Shown: piece after piece, positions 2,111-54,133 of the stretch
Layout of the letters: each line of letters opens with the position of its first letter
How positions within the stretch are numbered: position 1 is the first letter of the stretch
Assembly (NCBI GenBank): GCA_021648725.1
Contig: JAKISF010000005.1
Coordinates: 12,375-76,374 of the forward strand
DNA: 64,000 nucleotides
DNA from: Bacteroidales bacterium
GTDB taxonomy: Bacteria > Bacteroidota > Bacteroidia > Bacteroidales > JAADGE01
Direction: 5' to 3'
Made by a program: the position numbers and the translations under genes
Notes under the pieces: model-generated
Database searches by the model: none
Told to the model about the DNA's origin: nothing
The model's input: only the letters and a program-made list of their open reading frames with translations

Positions 2111-2116
2111 CACTTA

Positions 2117-2148
2117 AAGTCTTGACAAATTTTGTTGAGGCTTTTTTT
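2117..2148 (+). terminator. Rho-independent terminator after tRNA-His
   Basis: AAGTCTTGAC (2117-2126) pairs with GTTGAGGCTT (2134-2143), including G-U wobbles. The loop is 7 nt and a run of seven T follows. Confidence 0.55.
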
Positions 2149-2153
2149 ATGGC

Positions 2154-2161
2154 TATATTTG
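2154..2161 (+). promoter_or_regulatory. Candidate -7 box (TAnnTTTG)
   Basis: TATATTTG lies 27 nt upstream of the ATG at 2189. Confidence 0.35.
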
Positions 2162-2188
2162 AATCTTATTTAAGATAATAATTTTACA

Positions 2189-3079
2189 ATGTTTTATCTT
2201 CCTATCCAATACGAACAACCCTTATTCAGACCGCCTTCCGAGGCACGTTCTTTAATTTTGCAGATAACTTCCGGTTGTTCTTGGAATAAATGTGCTTTTT
2301 GCGAGATGTATGCTTCCAAATCTTTCAGAGTTAAACCGTTTGGCATTGTTAAACAAGAAATTGAGCAAGTTGCAAATTCATCTTTAAAGTTTAATAAAGT
2401 ATTTTTAGCAGACGGCGATGCAATGGTTTTGTCTGCCGGTAAATTATTGCAAATTTTAAATGAAATAAATGACAAGTTCCTTAAAATAAGACGAATTTCA
2501 ATATATGCTCGTCCTTCCGATTTTGTAAAAAAAACATTATCCGAATTAAAAGAACTAAAATCTGCCGGATTAGAATTGGCTTATGTCGGTGTAGAATCGG
2601 GTGATGATGAGGTTTTAAAACACATAAATAAAGGCGAAACCTATAAATCAACCATAGAGGGTTTATTGAAAGCAAAAGAAGCCGGAATAAAGTTGTCCGT
2701 AATGATTTTAAACGGTTTGGGCGGTGAAGAACTGAGCCGACAACATGCCGTTAATTCTGCAAAAGTTTTAAATGAGGTTCAACCTGAGTATGCATCAACT
2801 TTGGTGTTAAGTTTGCCTTTGGGAGAAGCTCACTTTACAAATCGTTATTCCGGAAAATTTACGATGCTTAACAAACTTGAACTTATTGAAGAAATGGGTA
2901 TTTTTCTGAAAAACACCGAATTAGAGCAGACAGTTTTCAGAAGTGACCATGCGTCTAATTATTTGGTGCTGAAAGGAATTCTTTCAAAAGACAAGGCTTC
3001 TCTTTTGCATAAAATAAATGAAGTTTTAAATAATCCGCAACTTGCCGATTTACGGGAAGAGTGGGAGAGAGGACTGTAA
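2189..3079 (+). CDS. Radical SAM protein (Elp3-like domain class, function unknown)
   Basis: 296-aa ORF with a Cys triad in ITSGCSWNKCAFCEMY near the N-terminus and a glycine-rich GVESGDDEVL segment typical of radical SAM TIM-barrel cores. Confidence 0.7.
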   Translation: MFYLPIQYEQPLFRPPSEARSLILQITSGCSWNKCAFCEMYASKSFRVKPFGIVKQEIEQVANSSLKFNKVFLADGDAMVLSAGKLLQILNEINDKFLKIRRISIYARPSDFVKKTLSELKELKSAGLELAYVGVESGDDEVLKHINKGETYKSTIEGLLKAKEAGIKLSVMILNGLGGEELSRQHAVNSAKVLNEVQPEYASTLVLSLPLGEAHFTNRYSGKFTMLNKLELIEEMGIFLKNTELEQTVFRSDHASNYLVLKGILSKDKASLLHKINEVLNNPQLADLREEWERGL

Positions 3080-3301: not shown

Positions 3302-3559
3302 TTTAGTTAGGGCTTGCTGAAAAACGTTAAATATATTGTAATTCAATACTTTATATTTGTATTTTTGTGATAAAGTGCAAGGTTTTTGAATAAAATATCT
3401 TGAAACCCTTGCACTTATTTTGATAAAACTACCAATTTTTTGCTGCTCAGCTGCACATCTCTTTTGTATTTTGTTCAATTTGAAGTATTTATATACATCT
3501 ACATCTCACAAAATCCAAAATAGGCGCACATCTGAGCTTTTCAGCAAGCCCTAGTTAAA
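3302..3559. ncRNA. Candidate structured RNA or inverted-repeat element (class and strand unknown)
   Basis: Positions 3302-3323 pair with 3538-3559 over 22 consecutive positions. Positions 3308-3323 and 3538-3553 form 16 Watson-Crick pairs, and there are two G-U pairs on the plus strand. An internal hairpin pairs AGTGCAAGG (3374-3382) with CCTTGCACT (3407-3415). GCTCAG (3445-3450) pairs with CTGAGC (3532-3537). ACATCT occurs four times (3455, 3495, 3501, 3528). Confidence 0.35.
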
Positions 3560-3617
3560 AAATATGTTTACACAAAGTATATAAAAAAGGGGAATAAAAA
3601 AATATGATTCAAAAACT

Positions 3618-4301
3618 TTATTCCGGCTTAAAACGAGAAATATTTGACAGATGTTTCATTTGCTTAAATGCCATAACAAGCATTGCAATTAAAAAAGGAA
3701 TAAAAAATAATAATAAAACGGTATGTTGCGACATAATTATAAAATCATAAAACCCGTGTAAAACAATAGGAACAGTAAGAGATAAAATAAGGTATAATAT
3801 TCTTTTTTGAGGTCTGAATTTTGCCCATGCAAGAAAGTAACCCATTGAAATTCCGAACATTGTGTGTGCAGGAACAGCTGTGAATGCTCGCATTATTCCT
3901 GTTCCCGCTCCGTTTTGAAGAACATACATAATGTTTTCGATTGCGGCAAAACCGAGTGAAATATATGCGGCATATACAATTCCGTCGAATTTTTCATTAA
4001 AGTCTTTGCTTTTCCATATCACAAGTATGAATACTGAGTATTTGAAAATTTCTTCGGTTGAGGCTGCAACAATAAAGGCATTGTATGCTGCCGTTAACAT
4101 TTGGTTGCTCGGAAAATTATATTTGTTATTCCAATAATTGCCGAGCCAAGTTTCAATGAAAAAAATAGGCAAAACAGTTAATGCTCCGAAGATAAAAGTT
4201 TTAATTAATAGTTTTCGAGGTTCTTTTTCGTATTTATCTCTTCTGTAAATGTAAATAAGAATAAGTATAATAGGAGCAATTGAAATGGCTAATAATGTCA
4301 T
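3618..4301 (-). CDS. PrsW-family intramembrane protease
   Basis: 227-aa polytopic ORF with STEEIFKY, GFAAIEN, PAHTMFG and HGFYDF, the motif set I associate with PrsW. Confidence 0.7.
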   Translation of the reverse strand: MTLLAISIAPIILILIYIYRRDKYEKEPRKLLIKTFIFGALTVLPIFFIETWLGNYWNNKYNFPSNQMLTAAYNAFIVAASTEEIFKYSVFILVIWKSKDFNEKFDGIVYAAYISLGFAAIENIMYVLQNGAGTGIMRAFTAVPAHTMFGISMGYFLAWAKFRPQKRILYLILSLTVPIVLHGFYDFIIMSQHTVLLLFFIPFLIAMLVMAFKQMKHLSNISRFKPE

Positions 4302-31097: not shown

Positions 31098-32150
31098 TTA
31101 TGATTGGTCATGTTTTTTTTTCTGAATACTGATTATCTTTTTTATAGCAAATTCTTTACAGTGCATTCCGTCATAAAATCCGTCTTTTTTAATATGCAAA
31201 ATCGACGGATTAAAAGAACCGAATAATGTTATTTTATTTTCTGCGGCATATTTACGAATTTTGTTTTCCGTTTCTGTTACTTTCGGATAGGATTCTTTGA
31301 CTTTTTTATAAACCAACGGATGATATGGTGTCAGAAAAAAGTTTAGTTCAATATTGTTTTTTAGAATATCTTTACATAACAGATTAAAATTACTCCATAT
31401 TTCACCTGAAATATTATTGAAGTTTTCGATAGAATATATGTTGCCCGAGATAAACTTTTTTACTTTGTTTTCAATTTCAACGGAAGAAGCTTCTCTATAG
31501 TCTTTTCCGTAAACTAATGAACCGTCAGTCAGTTTAGTATTTGTATCGTTTAATTCATTATTTGTTGCAACAGGGGCAGATTTACCTCTGATTATATTCG
31601 GCAAGTTTCTGAATGATGCCTGAAAGTATGAAAAAGAGAATAGTTGAGATAAACGATTGTCAATTAGCTGATTGTCTTTGTAACCGGTAAAGCTGTAAAA
31701 TTCTTTTTTTAACGAAAGCCATCGTTTTTGACCATTGTTTGCATTTAACAACCAAGGGTCAATTCCGATTATTATTCTGTCGGGGAGTACTTCTTGAGTT
31801 TTGTACATTTGATAGATTGCAATAATATCTTCAATGCTTGCACCGGTTACACTGTTGTTAATAACAACTTTATTCGGAAAAAGTTTACTGTTCAGTAACA
31901 TTGTTCTGCTTGAACCTATTATTACAATGTCGGGTTTATAATGTATGTTATTTATTATTTCTTTTTGAAGAATTCGGTCATCATAATTTGAAATATTTGT
32001 AGCATTCATTCCTTCGGAAAGAATTGAAGCAATTTTTTTTTCGTAATTTCCGTGAAATAACATTGCACCGTCACCCCAATAATTAACAGACGTTAGAATA
32101 ACAAGAATTATTAAAGATGATATTGATGTTTTAATAATAAACTTTTTCAT
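31098..32150 (-). CDS. Membrane-anchored DltD/AlgJ-like (SGNH-like) partner of the upstream MBOAT
   Basis: The track ORF runs to 32183, but the ATG at 32150-32148 (MKKFIIK...) sits 1 nt after the MBOAT stop and is the likelier start. The protein has an N-terminal TM helix and IVIIGSSRTM, a GDS-like block. Confidence 0.45.
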   Translation of the reverse strand: MKKFIIKTSISSLIILVILTSVNYWGDGAMLFHGNYEKKIASILSEGMNATNISNYDDRILQKEIINNIHYKPDIVIIGSSRTMLLNSKLFPNKVVINNSVTGASIEDIIAIYQMYKTQEVLPDRIIIGIDPWLLNANNGQKRWLSLKKEFYSFTGYKDNQLIDNRLSQLFSFSYFQASFRNLPNIIRGKSAPVATNNELNDTNTKLTDGSLVYGKDYREASSVEIENKVKKFISGNIYSIENFNNISGEIWSNFNLLCKDILKNNIELNFFLTPYHPLVYKKVKESYPKVTETENKIRKYAAENKITLFGSFNPSILHIKKDGFYDGMHCKEFAIKKIISIQKKKHDQS

Positions 32151-32151
32151 G

Positions 32152-33603
32152 TTAAAATTGGAAATAAATAAATTGATTTTCATTAAAATTACCCATTATC
32201 ATAATTATTAAAATTATACTGAAATAGAATGAATACCTTATATATTTGTTCTTAATGCCGGAAATATTTGCAAGGGCATATTGTTCTTTACGCCCAATCC
32301 ACTCAACAAACATAAATGCGAAAATTAAAATAAGTGTATATAAAGCTAATTTAAGATTATAGAAATTAGGGATAGTTAAAGTTGATTTTGAAAAAATTGT
32401 TGATAAGTAACTTAAAGCATGGTCAATACTTTTTGCTCTGAAAAATATCCAAGCCAAAACTGTTAAGCCAAAAGTTGTTCCCATTTGAAGGAGTTCTTTT
32501 ATATTCGGTAAATATCGATTTTGTGCAACGGTATCTGTATTTTTTCTGTTTTTGTTCAGCAAAAGCAAAGGCAAAAAATATAAGGCATTTAATGTTCCCC
32601 AAACAATAAAAGTCCAATTTGCACCGTGCCAGAATCCGCTTACGATAAAAATAATGAATGTATTTTTGATTTTCATCCAAATTCCGCCGCGGCTACCGCC
32701 TAACGGAATATATAAGTAATCTCGAAACCAAGTTGATAATGAAATATGCCACCGCCTCCAAAATTCTGCAATGTCTCTTGAGAAATAAGGAAATGCAAAG
32801 TTTTGTTTAAGGTTAAAACCGAACAGTCTTGCTGTTCCTATTGCAATATCTGAGTAACCGGAGAAATCTCCGTATATTTGGAATGTGAAAAATAAAGCAC
32901 CTACAATTAGTGTACTTCCGGAATAATCTGCTGAATTATTAAATATTTCATTGGCTATTTGTGCCGAGTTATCAGCAATTACAATTTTTTTAAATAAGCC
33001 CCACAAAATTTGCCTTAGTCCGTCAACAGCCTTGTTATATTCAAATTTTCTTTTTTTATAGAATTGAGGCAGTAAGTTTGTTGCTCTTTCAATAGGTCCT
33101 GCGACTAATTGAGGAAAGAAACTGACAAATGCGGCAAATGCAATGAAATCTTTTGTCGGTTCAAGTTTTCTTTTATAAACATCTATAGTATAACTAAGGG
33201 TTTGAAATGTATAAAAACTAATTCCGACAGGTAGTATAATATTCAATCCTTGCGGATTAACAGGATGCCCAAAGAAACTAAATGCTGTTACAAAATTTTC
33301 TAAGAAGAAATTATAATATTTGAAAAATCCAAGAAACCCGAGATTAGCTAATAAACTTATCCAAAGTAATATTTTTCTTTTTGGTTGGTTATTTTCTTTC
33401 GATAGTTTAAGTCCAATTGTGTAATCAATCAATGTGCTGAATAATATTAATGATAAGAATCTCCAATCCCACCAACCATAAAAAATGTAACTTGCAACAA
33501 CTATGAGAAAGTTTTGAAATTTTAAGTTTTTATTAGTTATAAACCAGTACAGAAAAAATACAATCGGTAAAAATATTGCAAAATCTATTGAGTTAAAAAG
33601 CAT
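32152..33603 (-). CDS. MBOAT-family membrane-bound O-acyltransferase (AlgI/DltB/PatA-like)
   Basis: 483-aa polytopic ORF with FWRRWHISLSTWFRDYLYIPLGGSR and GFWHGANW, the conserved His-containing MBOAT blocks. It is a paralogue of 52694..54133. Confidence 0.85.
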   Translation of the reverse strand: MLFNSIDFAIFLPIVFFLYWFITNKNLKFQNFLIVVASYIFYGWWDWRFLSLILFSTLIDYTIGLKLSKENNQPKRKILLWISLLANLGFLGFFKYYNFFLENFVTAFSFFGHPVNPQGLNIILPVGISFYTFQTLSYTIDVYKRKLEPTKDFIAFAAFVSFFPQLVAGPIERATNLLPQFYKKRKFEYNKAVDGLRQILWGLFKKIVIADNSAQIANEIFNNSADYSGSTLIVGALFFTFQIYGDFSGYSDIAIGTARLFGFNLKQNFAFPYFSRDIAEFWRRWHISLSTWFRDYLYIPLGGSRGGIWMKIKNTFIIFIVSGFWHGANWTFIVWGTLNALYFLPLLLLNKNRKNTDTVAQNRYLPNIKELLQMGTTFGLTVLAWIFFRAKSIDHALSYLSTIFSKSTLTIPNFYNLKLALYTLILIFAFMFVEWIGRKEQYALANISGIKNKYIRYSFYFSIILIIMIMGNFNENQFIYFQF

Positions 33604-33945
33604 TGACTGTTATATTCTTTTATTGTTAGCTAATTTTGTTTTCTTGTACGAAGTATAGTGACAGTATAAAATTTTGTCCAAATTTAATTAATAATTTTAA
33701 CTTAGACTGTTGTCTTAATTTTTTTCGGGAATTACATTAGTTATATCTGATTTATTTAAGTACCTTTGTAGTGGATTAAAAATCTTTTGATTTCAATCAT
33801 GTACTATCATTTTTGTTGATGTGCTTTTTTAAGCAATCTTTCATCACATTTGCAGACTTCATACTTATAGTTGAGTTATCAGTAACCAGTCCCGTCAAAG
33901 TACTAACTTTTAGTGCACCTAAGTGCTTATAGTCGAGCGTTTTCG

Positions 33946-33957
33946 TTTTTTTTTTTT
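33946..33957 (+). repeat. Poly-T tract (12 T) just upstream of the nucleotidyltransferase gene
   Basis: A counted run of 12 T ends 22 nt before the ATG at 33980. Confidence 0.8.
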
Positions 33958-33979
33958 GATGACACCAATTGAATAAAGT

Positions 33980-34777
33980 ATGAATATTAATTCAGACAAT
34001 TATTATGGTAACAATCGTATTTCTACAGCATTACTTCTTGCGGCAGGTACAGGCAGTCGTCTTTTCCCTTTAACAAAAAATTCTCCCAAATGCCTAACCC
34101 TTGTAAATGAAAAGTCAATTCTTGAGCGACTTATCAGTAACTTGAAAAAACAAGGATTTAAACGTCTTGTAGTTGTTACCGGCTATAAAAGTAAATGTAT
34201 TACGGATATTTTGGGTAATCATTCAGGTGGCTTAAGTATTGAGTACATTCATAGTCCCTTATACCGCACAACTAACAATATATATTCGCTTTGGATGGCA
34301 CGCAATATTATTAATGAGCCTTTTGTACTGCTTGAAAGTGATTTGGTTTTAAATACCTCCCTGCTTGATGAAATGGTTTTGCCCGGTAAAATAGCCGTAG
34401 CAAAAATGCAACCTTGGTTAGACGGAACCACGGTTTCTCTTAATAAACAAAATCAGGTAACTAAGTTCCATAAAGGCACAACAGATACATATACTGATAT
34501 TCGTTATAAAACAGTTAATATTTACAGCTTCTCGCTTTCATCGTGGCGGGCAATTGTTATGAAGCTAAACCAATATATTTCTGAGGGTAGTGTTAATTGT
34601 TACTACGAAACCGTTTTTACTGAAATGGTTGCCGATAAAAGCCTGTTGTTTGAATCGGTTTTGTTCGACCAAAAACCGTGGTACGAGATTGATACTATAA
34701 ATGATTTAGCTGAAGCAGAAAAACTTTTTCCGGTAGAATTAAAAACACGGGTTAAGTTAGAAAAGACTTATGCATAG
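33980..34777 (+). CDS. LicC-like nucleotidyltransferase (phospho-alcohol cytidylyltransferase type)
   Basis: 265 aa with LLLAAGTGSRLFPLT (NTP-transferase P-loop-like motif) and TTNNIYSLWMA...LLESDLV, as in phosphocholine cytidylyltransferase-type enzymes. Local GC is clearly above the flanks. Confidence 0.65.
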   Translation: MNINSDNYYGNNRISTALLLAAGTGSRLFPLTKNSPKCLTLVNEKSILERLISNLKKQGFKRLVVVTGYKSKCITDILGNHSGGLSIEYIHSPLYRTTNNIYSLWMARNIINEPFVLLESDLVLNTSLLDEMVLPGKIAVAKMQPWLDGTTVSLNKQNQVTKFHKGTTDTYTDIRYKTVNIYSFSLSSWRAIVMKLNQYISEGSVNCYYETVFTEMVADKSLLFESVLFDQKPWYEIDTINDLAEAEKLFPVELKTRVKLEKTYA

Positions 34778-34796
34778 TGTTTCAAATTAATATATT

Positions 34797-35903
34797 ATGG
34801 GAAATACCTATAAAACACAGGCGGAGAAATACGAATACATATCAAAACAACACGGTGGCTATTATCGGCATAATTTTACCGACCATGCCTATTTATACAA
34901 TCTCTATTTCCCGCCTAAAGCGGTATTTGCCCACCTTAAAGACAACATTCAGAACTTAGTGTTGAATTACCCCATGGCACAAGATGCACTTGCCGAACTA
35001 ATTGGTGAAATAATACAGCAGCCCACTGAAAGAATTGTTGTTGGAAATGGTGCTGCTGAAATTATAAAAATATTATCCGGTCATTTAGCAAAAAAAATAA
35101 TAGTTCCGGTACCTTCATTTAATGAATATGCAAATGTGGCACCTAAAGGGTGTGTAGTCGAATTTCCGCTTGAGTTTCCATCCTTTCAGCTGGATGTAGA
35201 TAAGTTTGCTGCGGAAGCTATTAAAGCTAAAGCTGACATGGCTGTTGTGGTAACACCCAATAACCCTACATCGATGTTAGTGCCGAAAGCCGATTTAATT
35301 CGACTTGCAAAGAAACTGGAAATGCATAATTGCATGCTGATTATTGATGAATCTTTTCTTGATTTTACTGACAACAAAGAACAGATAAGTCTGGAACAAG
35401 ATATTGATAAATACGCCAATATGGCTATTCTTAAAAGCATGAGTAAAGCTTATGGAATTTGCGGACTAAGGATTGGATATTTGTTAACGGCTAACCTGGA
35501 ATTTGCAACTGCAGTTCGAAATGGCATTCATATTTGGAATATCAATGGATTTGCCGAAGAGTTTCTGCGTATTTTGCCACGTTATAAACATGAATTTGAA
35601 GCCAGTTGCGAACGGGTTAAATCAGACCGAGATATTTTTTATAAAAAGCTGTCGGATATTGAAGGGATGACCGTTTTTAAACCCGATGCAAACTATATTT
35701 TTTGTCGTTTGCCCGATACTGCTTTAAGTGGACCGGAAGTAACAAAACGCCTTTTTATTGAATACAATATTTATATAAAAGATAGTGCTGGAAAAACTCA
35801 ACCTGATGCAACCCGATATATTCGAATCGCAAGTCGCACCAATGAGGAAAACAGTAAGCTTATTGAAGCATTGAAAAATGTAATGTATTTAAAGACCGAA
35901 TAA
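34797..35903 (+). CDS. Class I/II PLP-dependent aminotransferase/decarboxylase, HisC/CobD-like
   Basis: 368 aa with NPNNPT-like TPNNPTS, IIDESF and the PLP-lysine block KSMSKAYGICGLRIGY. These are characteristic of histidinol-phosphate aminotransferase and threonine-phosphate decarboxylase relatives. Confidence 0.7.
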   Translation: MGNTYKTQAEKYEYISKQHGGYYRHNFTDHAYLYNLYFPPKAVFAHLKDNIQNLVLNYPMAQDALAELIGEIIQQPTERIVVGNGAAEIIKILSGHLAKKIIVPVPSFNEYANVAPKGCVVEFPLEFPSFQLDVDKFAAEAIKAKADMAVVVTPNNPTSMLVPKADLIRLAKKLEMHNCMLIIDESFLDFTDNKEQISLEQDIDKYANMAILKSMSKAYGICGLRIGYLLTANLEFATAVRNGIHIWNINGFAEEFLRILPRYKHEFEASCERVKSDRDIFYKKLSDIEGMTVFKPDANYIFCRLPDTALSGPEVTKRLFIEYNIYIKDSAGKTQPDATRYIRIASRTNEENSKLIEALKNVMYLKTE

Positions 35904-35904
35904 G

Positions 35905-36561
35905 ATGAATGACAAACAGCAGCCGGGCATGCTTACTTTTGCCAAAGATTTACCTAATATTTGTTCTTTACTTGGATTATTGAGTGCTGTATTAGGAATA
36001 TTTTTTGCAATAAAAGGAAATTTTCCGGCAGCAATAATTGGAGTACTTTGGGCAGTCCTGTTCGATTGGTACGACGGAATTATTGCCCGAAAATTGAAAG
36101 GCAGGACAAAAATACAAGGTGTTTTTGGAGCTCAACTTGATTCAATGATTGATATTGTGAGTTTTGGAGTTTTACCTGCAATAATACTTTTAAGTTACGG
36201 AAATTACAGTATATGGTTTATGCCCGGAGCTTTTGTAATTATTGCTACAAGCACTATACGTTTGAGTTACTTTAATATTTATGGTCTTATCGACAGTAAA
36301 ACATATAAAGGACTGGCACTTGATAATAATGTGCTTATTCTTGCTTTCCTGTTTCTATTTGAAAGTTTATTCGAGCATTCTACTTTCTCAGTAGTTATTT
36401 ATATCCTTTTAATGATTCTGTCAGCATTAAACTTAACTTCAATTCCAACTCCAAAATTTGGCGGAAAATGGATTTATGTGCTGGTTTTTTATGTAATTAC
36501 ACTGACATTTGTTTTTGGTTGGATTCTGTATAATAAAGTGTCTTATACTGAAATAGGTTGA
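35905..36561 (+). CDS. CDP-alcohol phosphatidyltransferase family protein (PssA-like size)
   Basis: 218-aa polytopic ORF. DWYDGIIARKLKGRTKIQGVFGAQLDSMIDIVSFGVLPA carries the D-x2-DG-x2-AR...G-x3-D-x3-D signature, with a slightly longer spacer than I remember for PssA. Confidence 0.75.
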   Translation: MNDKQQPGMLTFAKDLPNICSLLGLLSAVLGIFFAIKGNFPAAIIGVLWAVLFDWYDGIIARKLKGRTKIQGVFGAQLDSMIDIVSFGVLPAIILLSYGNYSIWFMPGAFVIIATSTIRLSYFNIYGLIDSKTYKGLALDNNVLILAFLFLFESLFEHSTFSVVIYILLMILSALNLTSIPTPKFGGKWIYVLVFYVITLTFVFGWILYNKVSYTEIG

Positions 36562-36759: not shown

Positions 36760-37131
36760 TCAGCAGGTTTTCCCATATTCAAGCTTAAATGCTAAGTCTG
36801 CTTCTGTATCTGTTAATCCTGCTGTTGCATCTAATAGTAATTTTTGCAAGTCTTCATTTATGGCATTCCCTTTTCCCAAAACAACTCTTAAACGCTTTTC
36901 TAAATCTGATTTATCTGGCAAAGGCATATTAATTACCGTAACATATTTTTCAAGTTCTACGGGAAGTTTAAAAAATGGTGGAAGCAATAAAATATGTTTG
37001 TTTAATACTTTAAAATACTGAGTTGATTTACGAAGTTGAACAACAAACTTTTCATCACTAAATTGTTTGTGAGCATCTTCAATAATAAATATTTCTTTAT
37101 TGTCTCGCTGGGCGTATTCTATGACTTCGAC
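36760..37131 (-). pseudogene. 5'-truncated AAA+ ATPase remnant
   Basis: The frame is open for 124 codons and bounded upstream by a TAG at 37132-37134. My translation is VEVIEYAQRDNKEIFIIEDAHKQF...LLLPPFFKLPVELEKYVTVINMPLPDKSDLEKRL...GLTDTEADLAFKLEYGKTC. It has a Walker-B-like FIIED and an AAA lid-like part but no Walker A. The track shows only 36760..36987. Confidence 0.55.
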
Positions 37132-44924: not shown

Positions 44925-46028
44925 ATGATAAATGATAAAACAGTTGCAGTTGTTGTTCCGGCTTATAACGAAGAAACTCAAATAGGTATTGTTATAGAAA
45001 ATATGCCCAATTTTGTTGACAGAATTATTGTAATAAATGATTGCTCAAAAGATAAAACTTCCGATGTTGTTCAAAAATATATTCAAGATAACAATAGAGA
45101 TTATTCTCATCCTAAAATTAAAAAAACTGAGTTAGTTAAAACACTGTATAATCATGCTGATTTTGTAGTTCAGGAAATATTTGAAAAAGAAAAAAATAAT
45201 CTTACATCTTCCGAAATTGCAAATGAGCATCAAGAAAAAGACCGAATTATTTTAATAAATCACAAAAAAAACGGAGGAGTAGGAGCAGCTGTTGCTACCG
45301 GTTTTCAGTGGTGCAGAGAAAATAATATTGATATTACCGCAAAAGTTGACGGCGACGGACAAATGGACCCTGCTGAATTATATAATATTTGCAAACCCGT
45401 TGCAGAAGAAAATATTGATTATGTAAAAGGTAACCGATTGATACATAAAAGTTCAAAACTTGTAATACCCGAGATAAGATATCTCGGCAATTCAGTTTTA
45501 TCAATAATGACAAAAATTGCAAGCGGTTATTGGGCGGTAAGCGATACCCAAACTGCTTTTACTGCAATTTCAAGAAACGGATTAAATTCAATTCGTTTAG
45601 ATAAGCTTTATAAAAAATACGGTTATCCGAATGATATTTTGGTAAAACTAAATATTGCTTCATGCACTTTGAAAGAAGTTGAAATTAAACCTATTTATAA
45701 TGTAGGCGAAAAATCAAAAATGAAAATTTTGAAGTTAATTCCGCGACTTTCATTTTTGTTGTTTAAATCATTCTTTAAACGTTTGTTTGTAAAATATTTT
45801 TTCAGAGATTTTCACCCGCTGTTTTTCTTTTATATATTATCGTTCCTTTTATTTTTAATTGATATTCCTTTTATTGTAGAGTTAATAAAAAATTATACGG
45901 TAAAAGGTGCTGCAACACAAGAAAGTTGGTTGATTATATTCATATTCTTAACAATATCTTCCTTGCAATCATTATTTTTTGCAATGTGGATGGATATTCA
46001 GGATAATGAAAAATTATATAAAAGATAA
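44925..46028 (+). CDS. Family 2 glycosyltransferase with C-terminal TM helices (polyprenyl-phosphate sugar synthase-like)
   Basis: 367 aa with VAVVVPAYNEE, VINDCSKDKT and VDGDGQMDP (DxD). An insertion of about 60 aa lies between the first two motifs. Two to three C-terminal TM helices are present. Confidence 0.7.
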   Translation: MINDKTVAVVVPAYNEETQIGIVIENMPNFVDRIIVINDCSKDKTSDVVQKYIQDNNRDYSHPKIKKTELVKTLYNHADFVVQEIFEKEKNNLTSSEIANEHQEKDRIILINHKKNGGVGAAVATGFQWCRENNIDITAKVDGDGQMDPAELYNICKPVAEENIDYVKGNRLIHKSSKLVIPEIRYLGNSVLSIMTKIASGYWAVSDTQTAFTAISRNGLNSIRLDKLYKKYGYPNDILVKLNIASCTLKEVEIKPIYNVGEKSKMKILKLIPRLSFLLFKSFFKRLFVKYFFRDFHPLFFFYILSFLLFLIDIPFIVELIKNYTVKGAATQESWLIIFIFLTISSLQSLFFAMWMDIQDNEKLYKR

Positions 46029-46031
46029 ATA

Positions 46032-46916
46032 TTGATGAAAACTAAATTGTTGTTCAATATTCTGCTTTATTTATCATTAATTTTTCTCGTAGTATATTTG
46101 TACAGGCTTAATGTTGATGAGGTTAAGGGCTTAGATGTCAATGTGTTATATTTGCTGGTATCATTGTTATTTCTTTGGGGCGGTTTTTATTTAAGTACAT
46201 TGAGCTGGTGGTATGTATTAAAAAAACATAATATAAATATCTCAAAAAGAACTTCTTTAAAGTCACACGGTCTTTCTGTTTTTGCAAAATACATCCCGGG
46301 AAAAATTTGGGTTGTGTTAGGTCGTGCGGCAAAGGCAACTGAGCAAAAATATTCTGTTAAAACGGCATCTTTTGCTTCTTTAAAAGAGCAGTTGTTATAT
46401 GTTTGGCTCGGTTTATTGATAAGTGCACTTCCATTGTTTTTGTACAGAGGGATTGATATTTTTTCAATAAGCGTTTCGGTTTTATTTGTCGGAATAAGTT
46501 TTATTAATTTTTCTGATAAATTCAGAATTTTTGTAATTTGGTCTTTGAAAAAAGTTTTAAAAAAAGATATTGAAATACCGCATATATCATTTAAAAAGAA
46601 TTTAAAACTACTTGTATATATTTTTATTTATTGGACTTCCTGGATTATTGCTTTCTACTTTTTATCTCTTTCATTATATCCCGATACAACCGTTCAAATA
46701 GGATTTATTTTTCCTCTCAGCGTAACTATAGGTTTATTGGCTGTTATTGTTCCCGGCGGAATAGGTGTAAGGGAAGGAATAATGGTTACATTTATGGTGC
46801 TCAGCGGGATGCCTGTTGAAATTGCGGTAAGTATTTCGGTAGTTTCCAGAATTTGGTATATAAGCGGTGAATTATTTATTTTCTTATCGGCAGTTTTTGT
46901 TAAAAAGAGCAATTAA
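46032..46916 (+). CDS. UPF0104 / lysyl-PG-synthase-TM (flippase-like) membrane protein
   Basis: 294 aa with about 8 TM helices. YIPGKIWVVLGRA and IVPGGIGVREG match the family's conserved loops as I remember them. An ATG at 46035 is the probable start. The gene begins 3 nt after the GT2 stop. Confidence 0.5.
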   Translation: MMKTKLLFNILLYLSLIFLVVYLYRLNVDEVKGLDVNVLYLLVSLLFLWGGFYLSTLSWWYVLKKHNINISKRTSLKSHGLSVFAKYIPGKIWVVLGRAAKATEQKYSVKTASFASLKEQLLYVWLGLLISALPLFLYRGIDIFSISVSVLFVGISFINFSDKFRIFVIWSLKKVLKKDIEIPHISFKKNLKLLVYIFIYWTSWIIAFYFLSLSLYPDTTVQIGFIFPLSVTIGLLAVIVPGGIGVREGIMVTFMVLSGMPVEIAVSISVVSRIWYISGELFIFLSAVFVKKSN

Positions 46917-51337: not shown

Positions 51338-52687
51338 TTAATAATAATAAACTTTTAAACTGTCAATATAAAATTCTGTATTTTTTAAATTGTCAATATA
51401 AATTAATAAAGTATCAGTTTCTGCGTAATTTTCAGGAAATTTATAATCTAAATACAATTTGCACCATTTTTTAGAAACAGTGGTGTAATTCGTATTAATT
51501 TCAACTTTATGATTGTTAATTTTGCATGCAAATATTGCTTCGGTAAGCGAGTCAGTATAGTAAACGTTTAGCGATGTTTTAATTTTATTGATATTATTTT
51601 CTTTTGCTTTCTTCAGAACTTCGGAAAAGATTATTGTTTTTACCGAGTTTGAATCATTTTCTTGATTCTCTTTTATAAATAATGAAAGAGTATTTAAACT
51701 GTCAGATTTAAAAAGTTTTTCTTCAGTAAATTTGCAATTTTTAATTGTGTAAATATCATTTATTTTTAAACCCGATTGATATTTTGTTAGAATGTTGTTA
51801 TTTTTAATTTTATCGGCAACTTCTTCTGATAATCTTATTGCACTTTCTTTGTTTAAATGGCTTCCGTCGTAACTTTCATAACTGTTTTCAATATTAATCC
51901 ATAAACCGCCGGCATTGAAAAATCCTCTTAAAAAAGTATCAGGTTTAAATTTTCCGACGTTTTTCTCGAGTTCTTCCATATTTATTGAAGAGGGCACAAA
52001 AAAGCCGTAAACTTTAATTCCTTTTGATTTCCATTCCTTAACTTTTAGGTATAGGTTATTAATAACTTCCCGTGAAATTTCAGTTTCGCTGAATGTTTTT
52101 TTATAACTTTCAAGAGCATGGTAAGGAAAAGGACTGTCATACCACGAAGCTACCCAGCCGTCTTCAATATAAAATTCTTGATGATATTTATTAAATCCTT
52201 TTTCTGTTAAATTTTTTCTTATTTGAGCGGGCGAAGTAGGTGCAAAGAAATTTTTTACGGGGAATAAATATTTGTATTCTAATATTTCTTCTTTCTTTTT
52301 CTTTAGAATTCTTTTAATATGCCCGTTTTCTGATGCCTTTTTACTTAATGAAAGAGGAGTTATTCCTAAAATTATTATTTTTTCTTTACTGTTTAGATTT
52401 ATTCGCTTATCAATTAAGTCAAATAATAAATTACTGTGACCGCCTGATGAGAATCCTAAATTAATTGCAGAAGATTTTAATTTACCGCCTATTATTTTTG
52501 AGGAAATACCTCTGTAAATCCTTGAGTCTCCGGCAATAATAATGTCATATTTTTCGGAAGTTCTTACTTTGTGAACAAAAAGGGCTTTATATGCTTCGTC
52601 ATCAATTTTATTATCGGTAATAATTGCAACGGCGGAAGCAAAAATTAGTGAAACTATAATTGTTATGATTACGTTCTTGCTGAGCAT
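51338..52687 (-). CDS. Membrane-anchored SGNH/AlgJ/DltD-like partner of the upstream MBOAT, with extra C-terminal domain
   Basis: 449 aa with an N-terminal TM helix and IIIAGDSRIYRG, a GDS-like block. It starts 6 nt after the MBOAT stop. The C-terminal 130 aa or so are unassigned. Confidence 0.45.
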   Translation of the reverse strand: MLSKNVIITIIVSLIFASAVAIITDNKIDDEAYKALFVHKVRTSEKYDIIIAGDSRIYRGISSKIIGGKLKSSAINLGFSSGGHSNLLFDLIDKRINLNSKEKIIILGITPLSLSKKASENGHIKRILKKKKEEILEYKYLFPVKNFFAPTSPAQIRKNLTEKGFNKYHQEFYIEDGWVASWYDSPFPYHALESYKKTFSETEISREVINNLYLKVKEWKSKGIKVYGFFVPSSINMEELEKNVGKFKPDTFLRGFFNAGGLWINIENSYESYDGSHLNKESAIRLSEEVADKIKNNNILTKYQSGLKINDIYTIKNCKFTEEKLFKSDSLNTLSLFIKENQENDSNSVKTIIFSEVLKKAKENNINKIKTSLNVYYTDSLTEAIFACKINNHKVEINTNYTTVSKKWCKLYLDYKFPENYAETDTLLIYIDNLKNTEFYIDSLKVYYY

Positions 52688-52693
52688 ACAAGT

Positions 52694-54133
52694 TTAAAAT
52701 TGAAAATAAATAAATTCTTCTCCTTTTCCTCTGAAAAATATTATTGCTAATATTAGAATAACAAAGTAAGCATATTCTATAATTCTTTTACTTCGCAAAT
52801 TAATATGTTTAATAAAATTAACTCTTTTTATATTGAAGAAAAAGAATGATTCAATTAGAATTCCGACAGATATAAAGAAAATTCCGTTTATAAATACCTT
52901 GTCATTCGGATTAAAATCTTGAACAAAATTAAAGTTCAGAAGGTATTTTGTAACTTGAATTGCTTGCCCAAAGGAATCTGCTCTGAAAAATACCCAAGCA
53001 ATCATTACTTGAAAAAGTACCAAAGCTAATGCAAATATTTTTCCTATTCTGAATTTTAATAAAAACTTCGGTATTTTGAATATTCTTTCTAAACTTAAGA
53101 AAAAAGCGTGTAAGGCTCCCCAAATTACGAATGTCCATGCTGCTCCGTGCCAAAAACCCGAAACAATCATTGTAATCCACATATTTAGATGCCCTCTTAA
53201 TTTTCCCTTTTTTGAACCTCCTATCGGAATATAAACATAATCTTTGAACCAAGTAGATAATGAGATATGCCAACGTGTCCAAAATTCTCTTATCGAAGTT
53301 GAAATATACGGATGATTAAAATTAACTCTGAAATGGAAGCCCATCCATTTTGCCAGCCCTCTCGCAATATCGCTGTAACCGCTGAAATCAAAGTATATTT
53401 GGAATGCAAAACCTATTATTGCAATCCACCAATATAAAGTTGAAGTTGAAGTATTAACATCGCTGAAAGCATAATTTATTAAAGGTGCTATATTATCAGC
53501 TAATACTACTTTTTTAAAAAAACCGACTAATATTAATTTAAAACCGTTCCAATTTTCAAAGTCAGATACTTTTCTTACTTTCTTTAATTGAGGCAGTAAA
53601 TCACGAGCTCTTACAATAGGTCCTGCAACAAGTTGCGGAAACATTGCAAGATATGAGAAAAATTGCAAAATGTTATCGGTAGGTTTTAATCTTCCTCTGT
53701 AAACATCTATTGTGTAGCTCATTGATTGAAATGTGTAGAAACTGATTCCTACGGGAAGAATCAGCATAAATTCGGGAATTTTACTTTTCAGGTCAATTAT
53801 AATTCCGAAATTACTTAACAGCAAACTAATATTTTCCGCAAAAAATGAACTGTATTTAAAAGCCGCAAGACTTCCTAAATTTCCGATTAATGAAAGAATA
53901 AGGAAAAAGGTTTTGTGTTTCGGCTTTTTGAAGATTATTTTTCCGGCAAAAAAATCAATTAATCCGCTTCCGATAATAAGAAATAAGAATCTCCAATCCC
54001 ACCAACCGTAAAAAACAAATGAAGCAAAAGTAAAAAATAACCACCTAAAGTTATTTCTCAACTTATTAATTTGCGGAAGAATAACGAAGAAAAGAAATCC
54101 GAAAATAAGGAAGATTAACGAATTAAAAAGCAT
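52694..54133 (-). CDS. MBOAT-family membrane-bound O-acyltransferase (second copy)
   Basis: 479 aa with FWTRWHISLSTWFKDYVYIPIGGSK and GFWHGAAW. It shares the MLFNS start and the FIYFQF end with 32152..33603. Confidence 0.85.
   Translation of the reverse strand: MLFNSLIFLIFGFLFFVILPQINKLRNNFRWLFFTFASFVFYGWWDWRFLFLIIGSGLIDFFAGKIIFKKPKHKTFFLILSLIGNLGSLAAFKYSSFFAENISLLLSNFGIIIDLKSKIPEFMLILPVGISFYTFQSMSYTIDVYRGRLKPTDNILQFFSYLAMFPQLVAGPIVRARDLLPQLKKVRKVSDFENWNGFKLILVGFFKKVVLADNIAPLINYAFSDVNTSTSTLYWWIAIIGFAFQIYFDFSGYSDIARGLAKWMGFHFRVNFNHPYISTSIREFWTRWHISLSTWFKDYVYIPIGGSKKGKLRGHLNMWITMIVSGFWHGAAWTFVIWGALHAFFLSLERIFKIPKFLLKFRIGKIFALALVLFQVMIAWVFFRADSFGQAIQVTKYLLNFNFVQDFNPNDKVFINGIFFISVGILIESFFFFNIKRVNFIKHINLRSKRIIEYAYFVILILAIIFFRGKGEEFIYFQF

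Follow-up and report, generated by a model that had tools for sequence, protein, structure and literature searches.

A three-gene operon preceded by a conserved RNA leader lies in a 64,000-nucleotide stretch of contig JAKISF010000005.1 from a Bacteroidales bacterium, and may direct the formation of an amino alcohol activated with cytidine diphosphate (CDP). This whole stretch is called the window, and all coordinates refer to it unless a locus is named. The list of open reading frames (ORFs) places the three genes on the plus strand. Gene 1 (33980-34777, 265 amino acids) encodes a nucleotidyltransferase, probably a cytidylyltransferase, of the LicC/PntC family, as judged from Pfam, a profile search and signature motifs. 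Gene 2 (34797-35903, 368 amino acids) encodes a pyridoxal phosphate (PLP) enzyme, which Pfam, NCBIfam and relatives in the Protein Data Bank (PDB) assign to the CobD/SMUL_1544 branch of phospho-amino-acid decarboxylases. Gene 3 (35905-36561, 218 amino acids) encodes a PssA-like polytopic CDP-alcohol phosphotransferase with a complete catalytic motif. Genes 1 and 2 are separated by 19 nucleotides and genes 2 and 3 by a single nucleotide, exactly the co-directional arrangement described in an earlier account made from the sequence alone (the sequence-only reading). Pfam matches to NTP_transferase (2.5e-13), Aminotran_1_2 (6.2e-35) and CDP-OH_P_transf (3.1e-13) agree with the nucleotidyltransferase, PLP enzyme and CDP-alcohol transferase named there. 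Upstream of the operon are 376 nucleotides of noncoding DNA and then genes of opposite orientation, and downstream is a region of about 1 kb without a sizeable ORF. Because noncoding DNA lies on both flanks, the three genes stand alone.

The gene 1 protein carries the nucleotide-binding signature LLLAAGTGSRL at residues 18-28, which is invariant in its orthologues. Its NNIYSLW segment aligns to NNFYSLY of LicC, and a C-terminal CYYETV ... YEIDT region also aligns to that enzyme. When a profile of 33 gene 1 orthologues is compared with PDB sequences, LicC ranks first (3e-18, in N- and C-terminal stretches), followed by PntC (1.2e-12), and the best sugar-1-phosphate nucleotidyltransferase reaches 2.1e-8. 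A search with the single sequence gives the same ranking. The enzyme groups with LicC and PntC and not with the sugar-1-phosphate enzymes (2e-8 or weaker), which bears out its earlier description as LicC-like. The top raw scores in NCBIfam come from GlmU- and AglF-like models, through the N-terminal fold common to all of them, a model for IPCT/DIPPS covers the full length of the protein (4.6e-15), and NCBI names the orthologues 'phosphocholine cytidylyltransferase family protein'. The case for the LicC/PntC branch is good but not absolute, and on these similarities the enzyme probably uses cytidine triphosphate (CTP) and a small phospho-amine.

The gene 2 protein is ranked highest by the NCBIfam model for CobD (182.7 bits) and next by that for HisC (146.7 bits), and it falls below every equivalog cut-off in that collection. 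Its closest solved structure is 6OUX (1.9e-44), ahead of Salmonella CobD, 1LC5 (4.3e-27). PDB chains named HisC mostly match at 1e-15 or weaker, the stronger ones being 3FTB (1.5e-33) and 3EUC (1.4e-22). In the PDB, 6OUX is named 'threonine phosphate decarboxylase-like enzyme', which is also how SMUL_1544 is annotated; the gene for the latter lies between cbiB and cobU in Sulfurospirillum. According to the title of a paper, SMUL_1544 governs norcobamide synthesis, and it is reported to be an O-phospho-L-serine decarboxylase that yields ethanolamine phosphate. The lysine of gene 2 that forms the Schiff base with PLP lies within SMSKAYGICGLRIGY. Across 148 sequences, residues K328, R340 and R343 do not vary, and they align with R323, R334 and R337 of CobD. 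The aligned CobD segment is the C-terminal 'ILIRS...SRYYRVA' stretch, whose basic residues presumably form the binding site for the phosphate of the phosphomonoester.

The gene 3 protein has the full motif D54-x2-D57-G58-x2-A61-R62 ... G75-x3-D79-x3-D83. Among NCBIfam families it scores highest against archaetidylserine synthase (92.3 bits) and then PssA (74.4 bits), with other CDP-alcohol families far lower, and both scores are under the curated cut-offs (240 for NF038087 and 107 for TIGR00473, respectively). Its orthologues are named 'CDP-diacylglycerol--serine O-phosphatidyltransferase' by JGI. In an alignment to Methanocaldococcus jannaschii PSS (MjPSS), the segment LDSmiD corresponds to Asp62/Ser63/Asp66 and iRLsyF to Arg101/Phe105, and Arg104 is replaced by an invariant Tyr122. 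Asp62, Ser63, Asp66 and Phe105 hold the reacting serine in MjPSS (PMC8633023). These residues are kept in gene 3, but three of them belong to the universal CDP-alcohol motif, so the comparison has low power. The MjPSS stretch 'GLPIPAG', which follows a beta-hairpin, is replaced by G136-L-A-L-D140-N141-N142, and the last three of these positions show at least 98% conservation across 128 sequences. Residues of the 'GLPIPAG' region are among the contacts of CDP-diacylglycerol in MjPSS (PMC8633023). By its sequence, then, gene 3 is specifically PssA-like and not choline/ethanolamine-phosphotransferase-like. The 'GLPxP' stretch is, to our knowledge, conserved across PssA enzymes generally. The sequence-only reading recognized a CDP-alcohol transferase with a complete motif, but its label was too generic for a PssA-like protein carrying GLALDNN.

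The three genes are found together far beyond this contig. A scan with one genome per species identifies 288 stretches encoding a relative of the PLP enzyme, and a metagenome scan with a divergent member as query adds 410 further stretches. Of 162 related loci that were fetched, 120 extend far enough to either side of the PLP gene, and in 116 of these 120 all three genes are present in the order nucleotidyltransferase, PLP enzyme, CDP-alcohol transferase. Within the 162-locus set, the transferase gene mostly starts no more than 50 nucleotides from the end of the PLP gene. This arrangement is far beyond chance, and the trio is indeed kept as a unit. Of the four exceptions, L040 and L081 have only the PLP gene, and L099 and L107 lack a detectable gene 1; no replacement cytidylyltransferase was found in the last two.

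Representatives occur in at least five phyla, and the hosts include Bacteroidota, Ignavibacteriota, Calditrichota, Desulfobacterota and Gammaproteobacteria. Record titles name Flavobacteriales, Marinilabiliales/Bacteroidales, Cytophagales, Chitinophagaceae, Melioribacteraceae, 'Chlorobiota', Calditrichota, Desulfobacteraceae/Desulfobacterales and Porticoccaceae, and nearly all of the hosts come from marine, sediment, vent or saline-lake samples. Across these hosts the gene order is fixed, the catalytic motifs are intact and the neighbours differ. On three long contigs, from Flavivirga eckloniae, Ancylomarina longa and a Bacteroidales metagenome-assembled genome (MAG), the same trio in the same order has unrelated neighbours. 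The PLP protein is 84-95% identical among the 120 best database clusters. Identity to the window proteins across the loci is 69-92% for the PLP enzyme, 52-87% for the nucleotidyltransferase and 59-92% for the CDP-alcohol transferase, and third codon positions are 54-72% identical among four loci compared. Such close resemblance across phyla, in surroundings that change each time, indicates a cassette that has spread horizontally while strong purifying selection acts on it. Within the PLP gene, an antisense ORF of 84-119 amino acids (35186-35440, minus strand) recurs at the same place in 58-76 other loci; the simplest view is that it results from the tightly conserved sense frame and does not represent a gene.

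All-against-all clustering of the flanking ORFs of the 162 loci yields only two recurrent companions, which were counted by tblastn: an ATP-grasp ligase in 26 loci and an S-adenosylmethionine (SAM)-dependent methyltransferase in 19. Among these ORFs there is no recurrent gene for a kinase, a transporter, or the cobamide, inositol or CDP-diacylglycerol pathways. The methyltransferase occurs in two forms. One follows gene 3, for example in L079 (5770-6612 of that locus) and L084-L087, and the other lies between genes 1 and 2 in L097 (4919-5755), L115 and L137; further loci bearing a methyltransferase are L099, L101, L102, L114, L121, L130 and L156. The two families are only 31-34% identical, and both best match phosphoethanolamine N-methyltransferases of plants (PMT1 and PMT2) and nematodes (2.5e-13 and 1.9e-11). 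The ATP-grasp ligase is about 430 amino acids long, has a pre-ATP-grasp domain and is encoded directly downstream of gene 3. The loci that carry it include L038, L043, L050, L061, L065, L067, L068, L070, L073, L074, L098, L106, L144 and L148, and it weakly resembles LdmS, BesA and MfnD, ligases that couple an amino acid with either an amine or a second amino acid.

The conserved RNA leader is the most novel feature of the locus, and the sequence-only reading, accurate in its description of the three genes, missed it. When the upstream regions of four loci are aligned, about 250 nucleotides before gene 1 are strongly conserved, and the sequence further upstream is not. In blastn searches the leader is directly upstream of gene 1 in about 55 loci, with 74-87% identity. 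Between the window and loci L001 and L003 it is 79-83% identical, as compared with 54-65% for third codon positions of the adjacent genes. A putative Bacteroidota-type -7 promoter box, TAccTTTG (33761-33768, plus strand), was read from the sequence and is at least 90% conserved in 55 aligned upstream regions; the promoter consensus in Bacteroidota is TAnnTTTG. The leader itself occupies 33765-33982 on the plus strand, about 215 nucleotides. The only ATG-started mini-ORF in the window leader (MYYHFC) is not conserved, and a leader peptide was rejected.

The predicted structure comprises a multi-helix 5' domain followed by a terminator-like element. P1 (33773-33777/33888-33892, GGAUU/AGUCC) closes the 5' domain, which holds P2 (33780-33784/33789-33793), P3 (33812-33821/33847-33856) and P4 (33858-33861/33872-33875). 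P2 has two registers, which one consensus cannot show together, and P3 has 10 base pairs and contains an inner hairpin at 33823-33834. P5 (33893-33899/33955-33961) encloses P6, a hairpin at 33900-33906/33910-33916, and P7. The terminator-like element (33918-33957) consists of the P7 stem (33918-33926/33937-33945) and a run of 12 T residues (33946-33957). Across loci, the 3' end of the leader retains such a stem, of 8-9 base pairs, with 7-12 U residues after it. A generic promoter and terminator scan found nothing above expectation and did not flag the hairpin.

A MAFFT alignment of 53 leaders supports eight helices. In these helices 92.5% of cells are paired, versus 32-44% in slid controls; the counts were made on the same sequences that gave the structure, and shared ancestry inflates the apparent conservation. 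Many of the changes are one-sided exchanges among G-U, A-U and G-C pairs, and the inner hairpin of P3 includes a clear replacement of U-A by C-G. The P7 pairs are kept in 41-53 of the 53 sequences, with exchanges of the same kind. RNAalifold by itself recovered the structure incompletely. The UGAUG and CAUCA elements are repeated, so that pairings which exclude one another could form; in a hand comparison P3 is better conserved than the alternative UGAUGA/UCAUCA pairing, and no antiterminator could be identified in the leader. The leader of Ancylomarina longa (locus L010, which is the same as L002; 2925-3173) has a 34-nucleotide tandem duplication of the P4 hairpin module (GACTTCATTCTTATAGTTGAGTTAT...), which suggests that P4 is a self-contained element.

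A covariance model of the leader, R1, finds a single copy in the window (33765-33982, 197.5 bits) and none elsewhere in it. Copies are also found in L040, L022, L015 and L038. The leader is present in type I cassettes, and R1 has no match in 549 kb of type III loci. Rfam 15 has no match to the leader at the gathering threshold, and matches in 33600-34000 at E values up to 10 are at chance level. Locus L040, from a Cyclobacteriaceae MAG, has a full leader (3511-3721, 189 bits) ahead of a PLP gene that has lost both partners, and L038 has a partial, inverted copy (2116-2240, minus strand, 92 bits) about 900 nucleotides upstream of its trio. Both look like products of decay or rearrangement. With its conserved helices, its terminator-like hairpin and its position ahead of a single operon, the leader is a candidate orphan riboswitch or attenuator.

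Taken together, the three genes could form an operon that is horizontally mobile and self-sufficient and that encodes a de novo CDP-amino-alcohol route with no kinase and with central metabolites as its only inputs. We give this proposal about an even chance of being correct. In the first step, the PLP enzyme would decarboxylate O-phospho-L-serine to phosphoethanolamine. The LicC-type enzyme would then convert phosphoethanolamine and CTP to CDP-ethanolamine, and the PssA-like membrane enzyme would move phosphoethanolamine onto a hydroxyl acceptor with release of cytidine monophosphate. Diacylglycerol is the favoured acceptor and the simplest reading, which would give phosphatidylethanolamine by a bacterial Kennedy-type route, and soluble L-serine is a possible one. 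In four-gene variants, a phosphoethanolamine-N-methyltransferase-like enzyme might produce phosphocholine and hence choline-type products (phosphatidylcholine, if diacylglycerol is the acceptor), or the ATP-grasp ligase might acylate the free amine. For the window copy and the majority of those in Bacteroidota and Ignavibacteriota, transcription would start from the TAnnTTTG promoter and proceed through the leader, whose 5' multi-helix domain and terminal hairpin with U-run probably act as a ligand- or factor-controlled attenuator.

The choice of phosphoethanolamine rests on three observations: the SMUL_1544 annotation of 6OUX, the lack of a threonine kinase, and the phosphoethanolamine-type matches of the methyltransferases. 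Phosphoserine is an intermediate of serine synthesis, and threonine phosphate requires a dedicated kinase. Because the cassette crosses phyla with three genes only, its substrates should be universal metabolites, such as phosphoserine. The head group is more likely to be plain phosphoethanolamine than an exotic amino alcohol, with a choline-type group in the methyltransferase variants. Along with the ATP-grasp companion, these points favour a primary amine of the phosphoethanolamine type as the intermediate, which some lineages would convert to a choline-type group; given the weak methyltransferase matches, this counts as a lead that falls short of proof. The Kennedy-type logic put forward in the sequence-only reading stands, with diacylglycerol favoured and serine possible as the acceptor, but the unusual head group that it proposed is not borne out by the missing threonine kinase, the methyltransferase matches or the nearest PLP relative.

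Several observations weigh against this phosphoethanolamine route or against its control by the leader. Gene 2 scores well below the cut-off of the CobD equivalog, TIGR01140 (182.7 versus 290.55 bits), and sequence alone cannot separate a decarboxylase from an aminotransferase, or serine phosphate from threonine phosphate, as its activity and substrate. We know of no sequence rule that distinguishes decarboxylation from transamination in enzymes of the CobD and SMUL_1544 types. The PssA-like character of gene 3 and its MjPSS serine-site residues would fit a serine acceptor, or a CDP-diacylglycerol donor, at least as well as a diacylglycerol acceptor. The methyltransferase matches are weak and mainly reflect the general SAM-binding fold, and the L079-type enzyme also matches the PADLOC model mad2 (1.9e-21). 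AlphaFold2 models of genes 1 and 3 have predicted local distance difference test (pLDDT) values of 51.7 and 53.4, from shallow alignments of sequences 78-93% identical, and are too poor to help; the Foldseek ranking of PntC and then LicC (TM about 0.3) obtained from such models was not used as evidence. In the leader, pairs with both sides changed number 13, barely above the 7-12 of slid controls, and the single-sequence fold is not unusually stable (z = -1.06). Two cassette subtypes, type II, which is marked by the ATP-grasp gene, and type III, found in Desulfobacterota and Gammaproteobacteria, have no leader, and their upstream regions are unrelated. The high similarity of the leaders may also partly reflect recent transfer.

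A more ambitious version is offered tentatively, and we consider it more doubtful than probable. It holds that the leader is a new class of riboswitch that senses an intermediate or product of a new pathway from phosphoserine decarboxylation through CDP-ethanolamine (CDP-choline in methyltransferase variants) to a PssA-derived transferase of new specificity. The entire unit would be passed horizontally among bacteria of marine sediments, in at least five phyla. The end product would be either phosphatidylethanolamine or phosphatidylcholine from a kinase-free Kennedy-type route, or a new soluble, serine-linked phosphodiester.

The second of these products is the substance of the strongest rival, which we regard as unlikely. 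The PssA-like enzyme might join CDP-ethanolamine to L-serine or another small alcohol, giving serine-phosphoethanolamine or a relative. Such a phosphodiester could be an osmolyte, or a precursor tailored by the ATP-grasp ligase or the methyltransferase, both of which have relatives that work on soluble compounds. DIPP synthase, a membrane enzyme that links two soluble substrates, provides a parallel for this logic. In gene 3, the residues equivalent to Asp62, Ser63, Asp66 and Phe105 of MjPSS are retained together with Arg101, and the invariant polar GLALDNN replaces the 'GLPIPAG' region that contacts CDP-diacylglycerol (PMC8633023). A leader RNA that senses its own pathway's output is also easier to picture for a soluble end product, and the hosts come from marine, saline or sediment samples. 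However, three of the four serine ligands are residues of the universal catalytic motif, and gene 3 keeps the full polytopic architecture, which in MjPSS shields the lipid tails. In addition, no transporter or other osmolyte gene is linked to the cassette. We know of no bacterial report of a solute resembling serine-phosphoethanolamine.

Next in probability, and also unlikely, is the same logic with another amino alcohol, either (R)-1-amino-2-propanol phosphate from threonine phosphate, the reaction of CobD, or serinol phosphate from dihydroxyacetone phosphate by transamination. This is the version put forward in the sequence-only reading, and under it the head group would be genuinely non-canonical. 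The first place of CobD and the second of HisC among NCBIfam models are consistent with this idea, as is the 4.3e-27 match to CobD (1LC5), and the scores of gene 2 under all equivalog cut-offs make a new specificity plausible. Yet no threonine kinase or other supply gene recurs in the 162 loci, despite movement of the cassette across phyla. The nearest solved relative carries the annotation of SMUL_1544, not of CobD, and both accessory methyltransferase families best match phosphoethanolamine methyltransferases. These points argue for phosphoethanolamine as the intermediate.

It is considerably less probable that gene 3 is an ordinary phosphatidylserine synthase, acting on CDP-diacylglycerol and serine, and that the PLP enzyme decarboxylates the phosphoserine head group in place of the pyruvoyl enzyme Psd. 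The family ranking of gene 3 (archaetidylserine synthase, then PssA) and its JGI name agree with such a role, and CobD-type enzymes decarboxylate phosphoserine and phosphothreonine esters. However, the strictly co-conserved LicC-type nucleotidyltransferase would have nothing to do. The same difficulty attends the alternative raised in the sequence-only reading, in which CDP-diacylglycerol is the donor and the amino alcohol the acceptor. Gene 3 also falls short of the PssA cut-off (74.4 versus 107), and the PLP enzyme lacks any membrane segment and retains the basic residues matching the C-terminal ones of CobD.

Membership in an already characterized pathway, either the nucleotide loop or linker of cobamides or an alternative inositol-lipid cluster of the Bacteroides vulgatus type, is very improbable and was rejected as largely refuted by gene context: the relationship of the PLP enzyme to CobD, the IPCT/DIPPS model that spans gene 1, and a pairing of NTP transferase with CDP-alcohol transferase like that in the putative B. 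vulgatus cluster (PMC9246714) speak for it, but no cob/cbi genes occur in the stretches of the window examined or recur across the 162 loci, the same holds for MIPS and HAD hydrolase genes, the Rfam search of the window finds no cobalamin riboswitch, and in the profile search LicC and PntC rank above the other nucleotidyltransferases. The trio thus most probably does not map to either pathway that the sequence-only reading had named as a possible home.

If the kinase-free cassette from phosphoserine operates as proposed, it would be a new entry point into head-group synthesis. Bacterial phosphatidylethanolamine is generally held to come from CDP-diacylglycerol via phosphatidylserine, and CDP-alcohol (Kennedy-type) routes are thought to be rare in bacteria and dependent on imported choline. 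Hundreds of marine genomes and metagenome contigs carry the cassette, which has apparently been exchanged between phyla. If its proposed function is correct, it could account for some 'unidentified aminophospholipids' of sediment bacteria, or possibly for a new solute in them. Three widely misannotated gene families would also gain a function; their present public labels, which are generic or misleading, are 'histidinol-phosphate aminotransferase', 'choline kinase' and 'phosphatidylserine synthase'. As an orphan riboswitch candidate whose regulon is a single operon, the leader narrows the search for a ligand to a few pathway compounds.

Other features of the window are given here for completeness. 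In the gap of about 1 kb downstream of the operon, 36760-37130 on the minus strand contains short ORFs only. The longest, 36760-36987 (75 amino acids), resembles the C-terminal part of a bigger protein, and the same frame region continues upstream; it may be a gene remnant, which would fit rearrangement beside a mobile cassette. A two-gene module is present in two copies on the minus strand, at 31098-33603 and 51338-54133. In each copy the first gene encodes an MBOAT (DltB/AlgI-like) acyltransferase (32152-33603 and 52694-54133), and the second encodes a protein without a Pfam match (31098-32183 and 51338-52687). The first copy is divergent from the operon and is not kept beside the trio in other loci. 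At 44925-46916, a gene for a family 2 glycosyltransferase is followed by one for a protein with LPG_synthase_TM, the transmembrane region of lysyl-phosphatidylglycerol synthase, which is another lipid- or envelope-modifying pair. A tRNA gene at 2037-2110 is the sole Rfam match in the whole window at the gathering threshold. PADLOC has no defence-system match for any of the three trio proteins, and a defence-system reading of the trio was rejected on gene context.

Full-text literature searches found no paper on the trio or its leader, and the cassette can be compared with several systems that share parts of it. Its closest analogues are the LicC-based CDP-choline route, the PntC-AEPT pair and the putative inositol-lipid cluster of Bacteroides vulgatus. 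In Treponema denticola, LicCA and a choline phosphotransferase make phosphatidylcholine by a CDP-choline route. In this route and that of Streptococcus pneumoniae LicC, a cytidylyltransferase of the same family precedes a CDP-alcohol phosphotransferase. The trio, in contrast, has no kinase or alcohol uptake, its phospho-amine would be made by the cassette's own PLP enzyme, and its transferase is PssA-like. The eukaryote-type Kennedy pathway is more distant, with a kinase, a cytidylyltransferase of the HxGH (ECT/CCT) type and a CPT/EPT transferase, whereas the trio has no kinase, a LicC fold and a PssA-like enzyme. The trio may therefore work like the Kennedy pathway without being a member of it by descent. 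The plant and Plasmodium route to phosphatidylcholine shares with the methyltransferase variants the predicted order of decarboxylation, N-methylation, CDP activation and transfer, with weak sequence matches. In that route serine is decarboxylated, whereas the trio would decarboxylate phosphoserine, with no need for an ethanolamine kinase and with different enzyme families.

Two systems resemble the supply side of the cassette. SMUL_1544 of Sulfurospirillum multivorans (6OUX) and Salmonella CobD (1LC5) have the same PLP fold, branch, Schiff-base lysine and aligned C-terminal basic residues as gene 2, but they belong to cobamide operons, near CbiB, CobU and CobS, and feed the corrin linker, whereas the PLP enzyme of the trio adjoins a cytidylyltransferase and a CDP-alcohol transferase. 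The PntC-AEPT pair of phosphonate tailoring (6PD1/6PD2; PMC6697681) likewise combines a PLP enzyme, whose product is a small amino-phosph(on)ate, with a LicC-like cytidylyltransferase that activates this product. However, AEPT is a class V transaminase that acts on a phosphonate and is accompanied by Ppm and Ppd genes, which the trio lacks, and the PLP enzyme of the trio is of class I/II and the CobD type.

The putative inositol-lipid cluster of Bacteroides vulgatus, for which a Kennedy-like route has been proposed, comprises an NTP transferase, a CDP-alcohol phosphatidyltransferase, a HAD protein and MIPS (PMC9246714). It is from the same phylum and follows the same three-part logic of supply enzyme, NTP transferase and CDP-alcohol transferase, and is itself unconfirmed; its supply enzyme is an inositol-phosphate synthase acting with a HAD protein, whereas that of the trio is a PLP enzyme, with no HAD protein. 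At the level of the transferase, gene 3 shares with PssA and MjPSS (7B1K; PMC8633023) its size, its polytopic architecture, the motifs DxxDGxxAR...GxxxDxxxD and LDSxxDxVSFG, and the residues equivalent to Arg101 and Phe105. Gene 3 differs in its coupling to a cytidylyltransferase and a PLP enzyme, in the changes of Arg104 to Tyr and of GLPIPAG to GLALDNN, and in scores below the cut-offs for those families.

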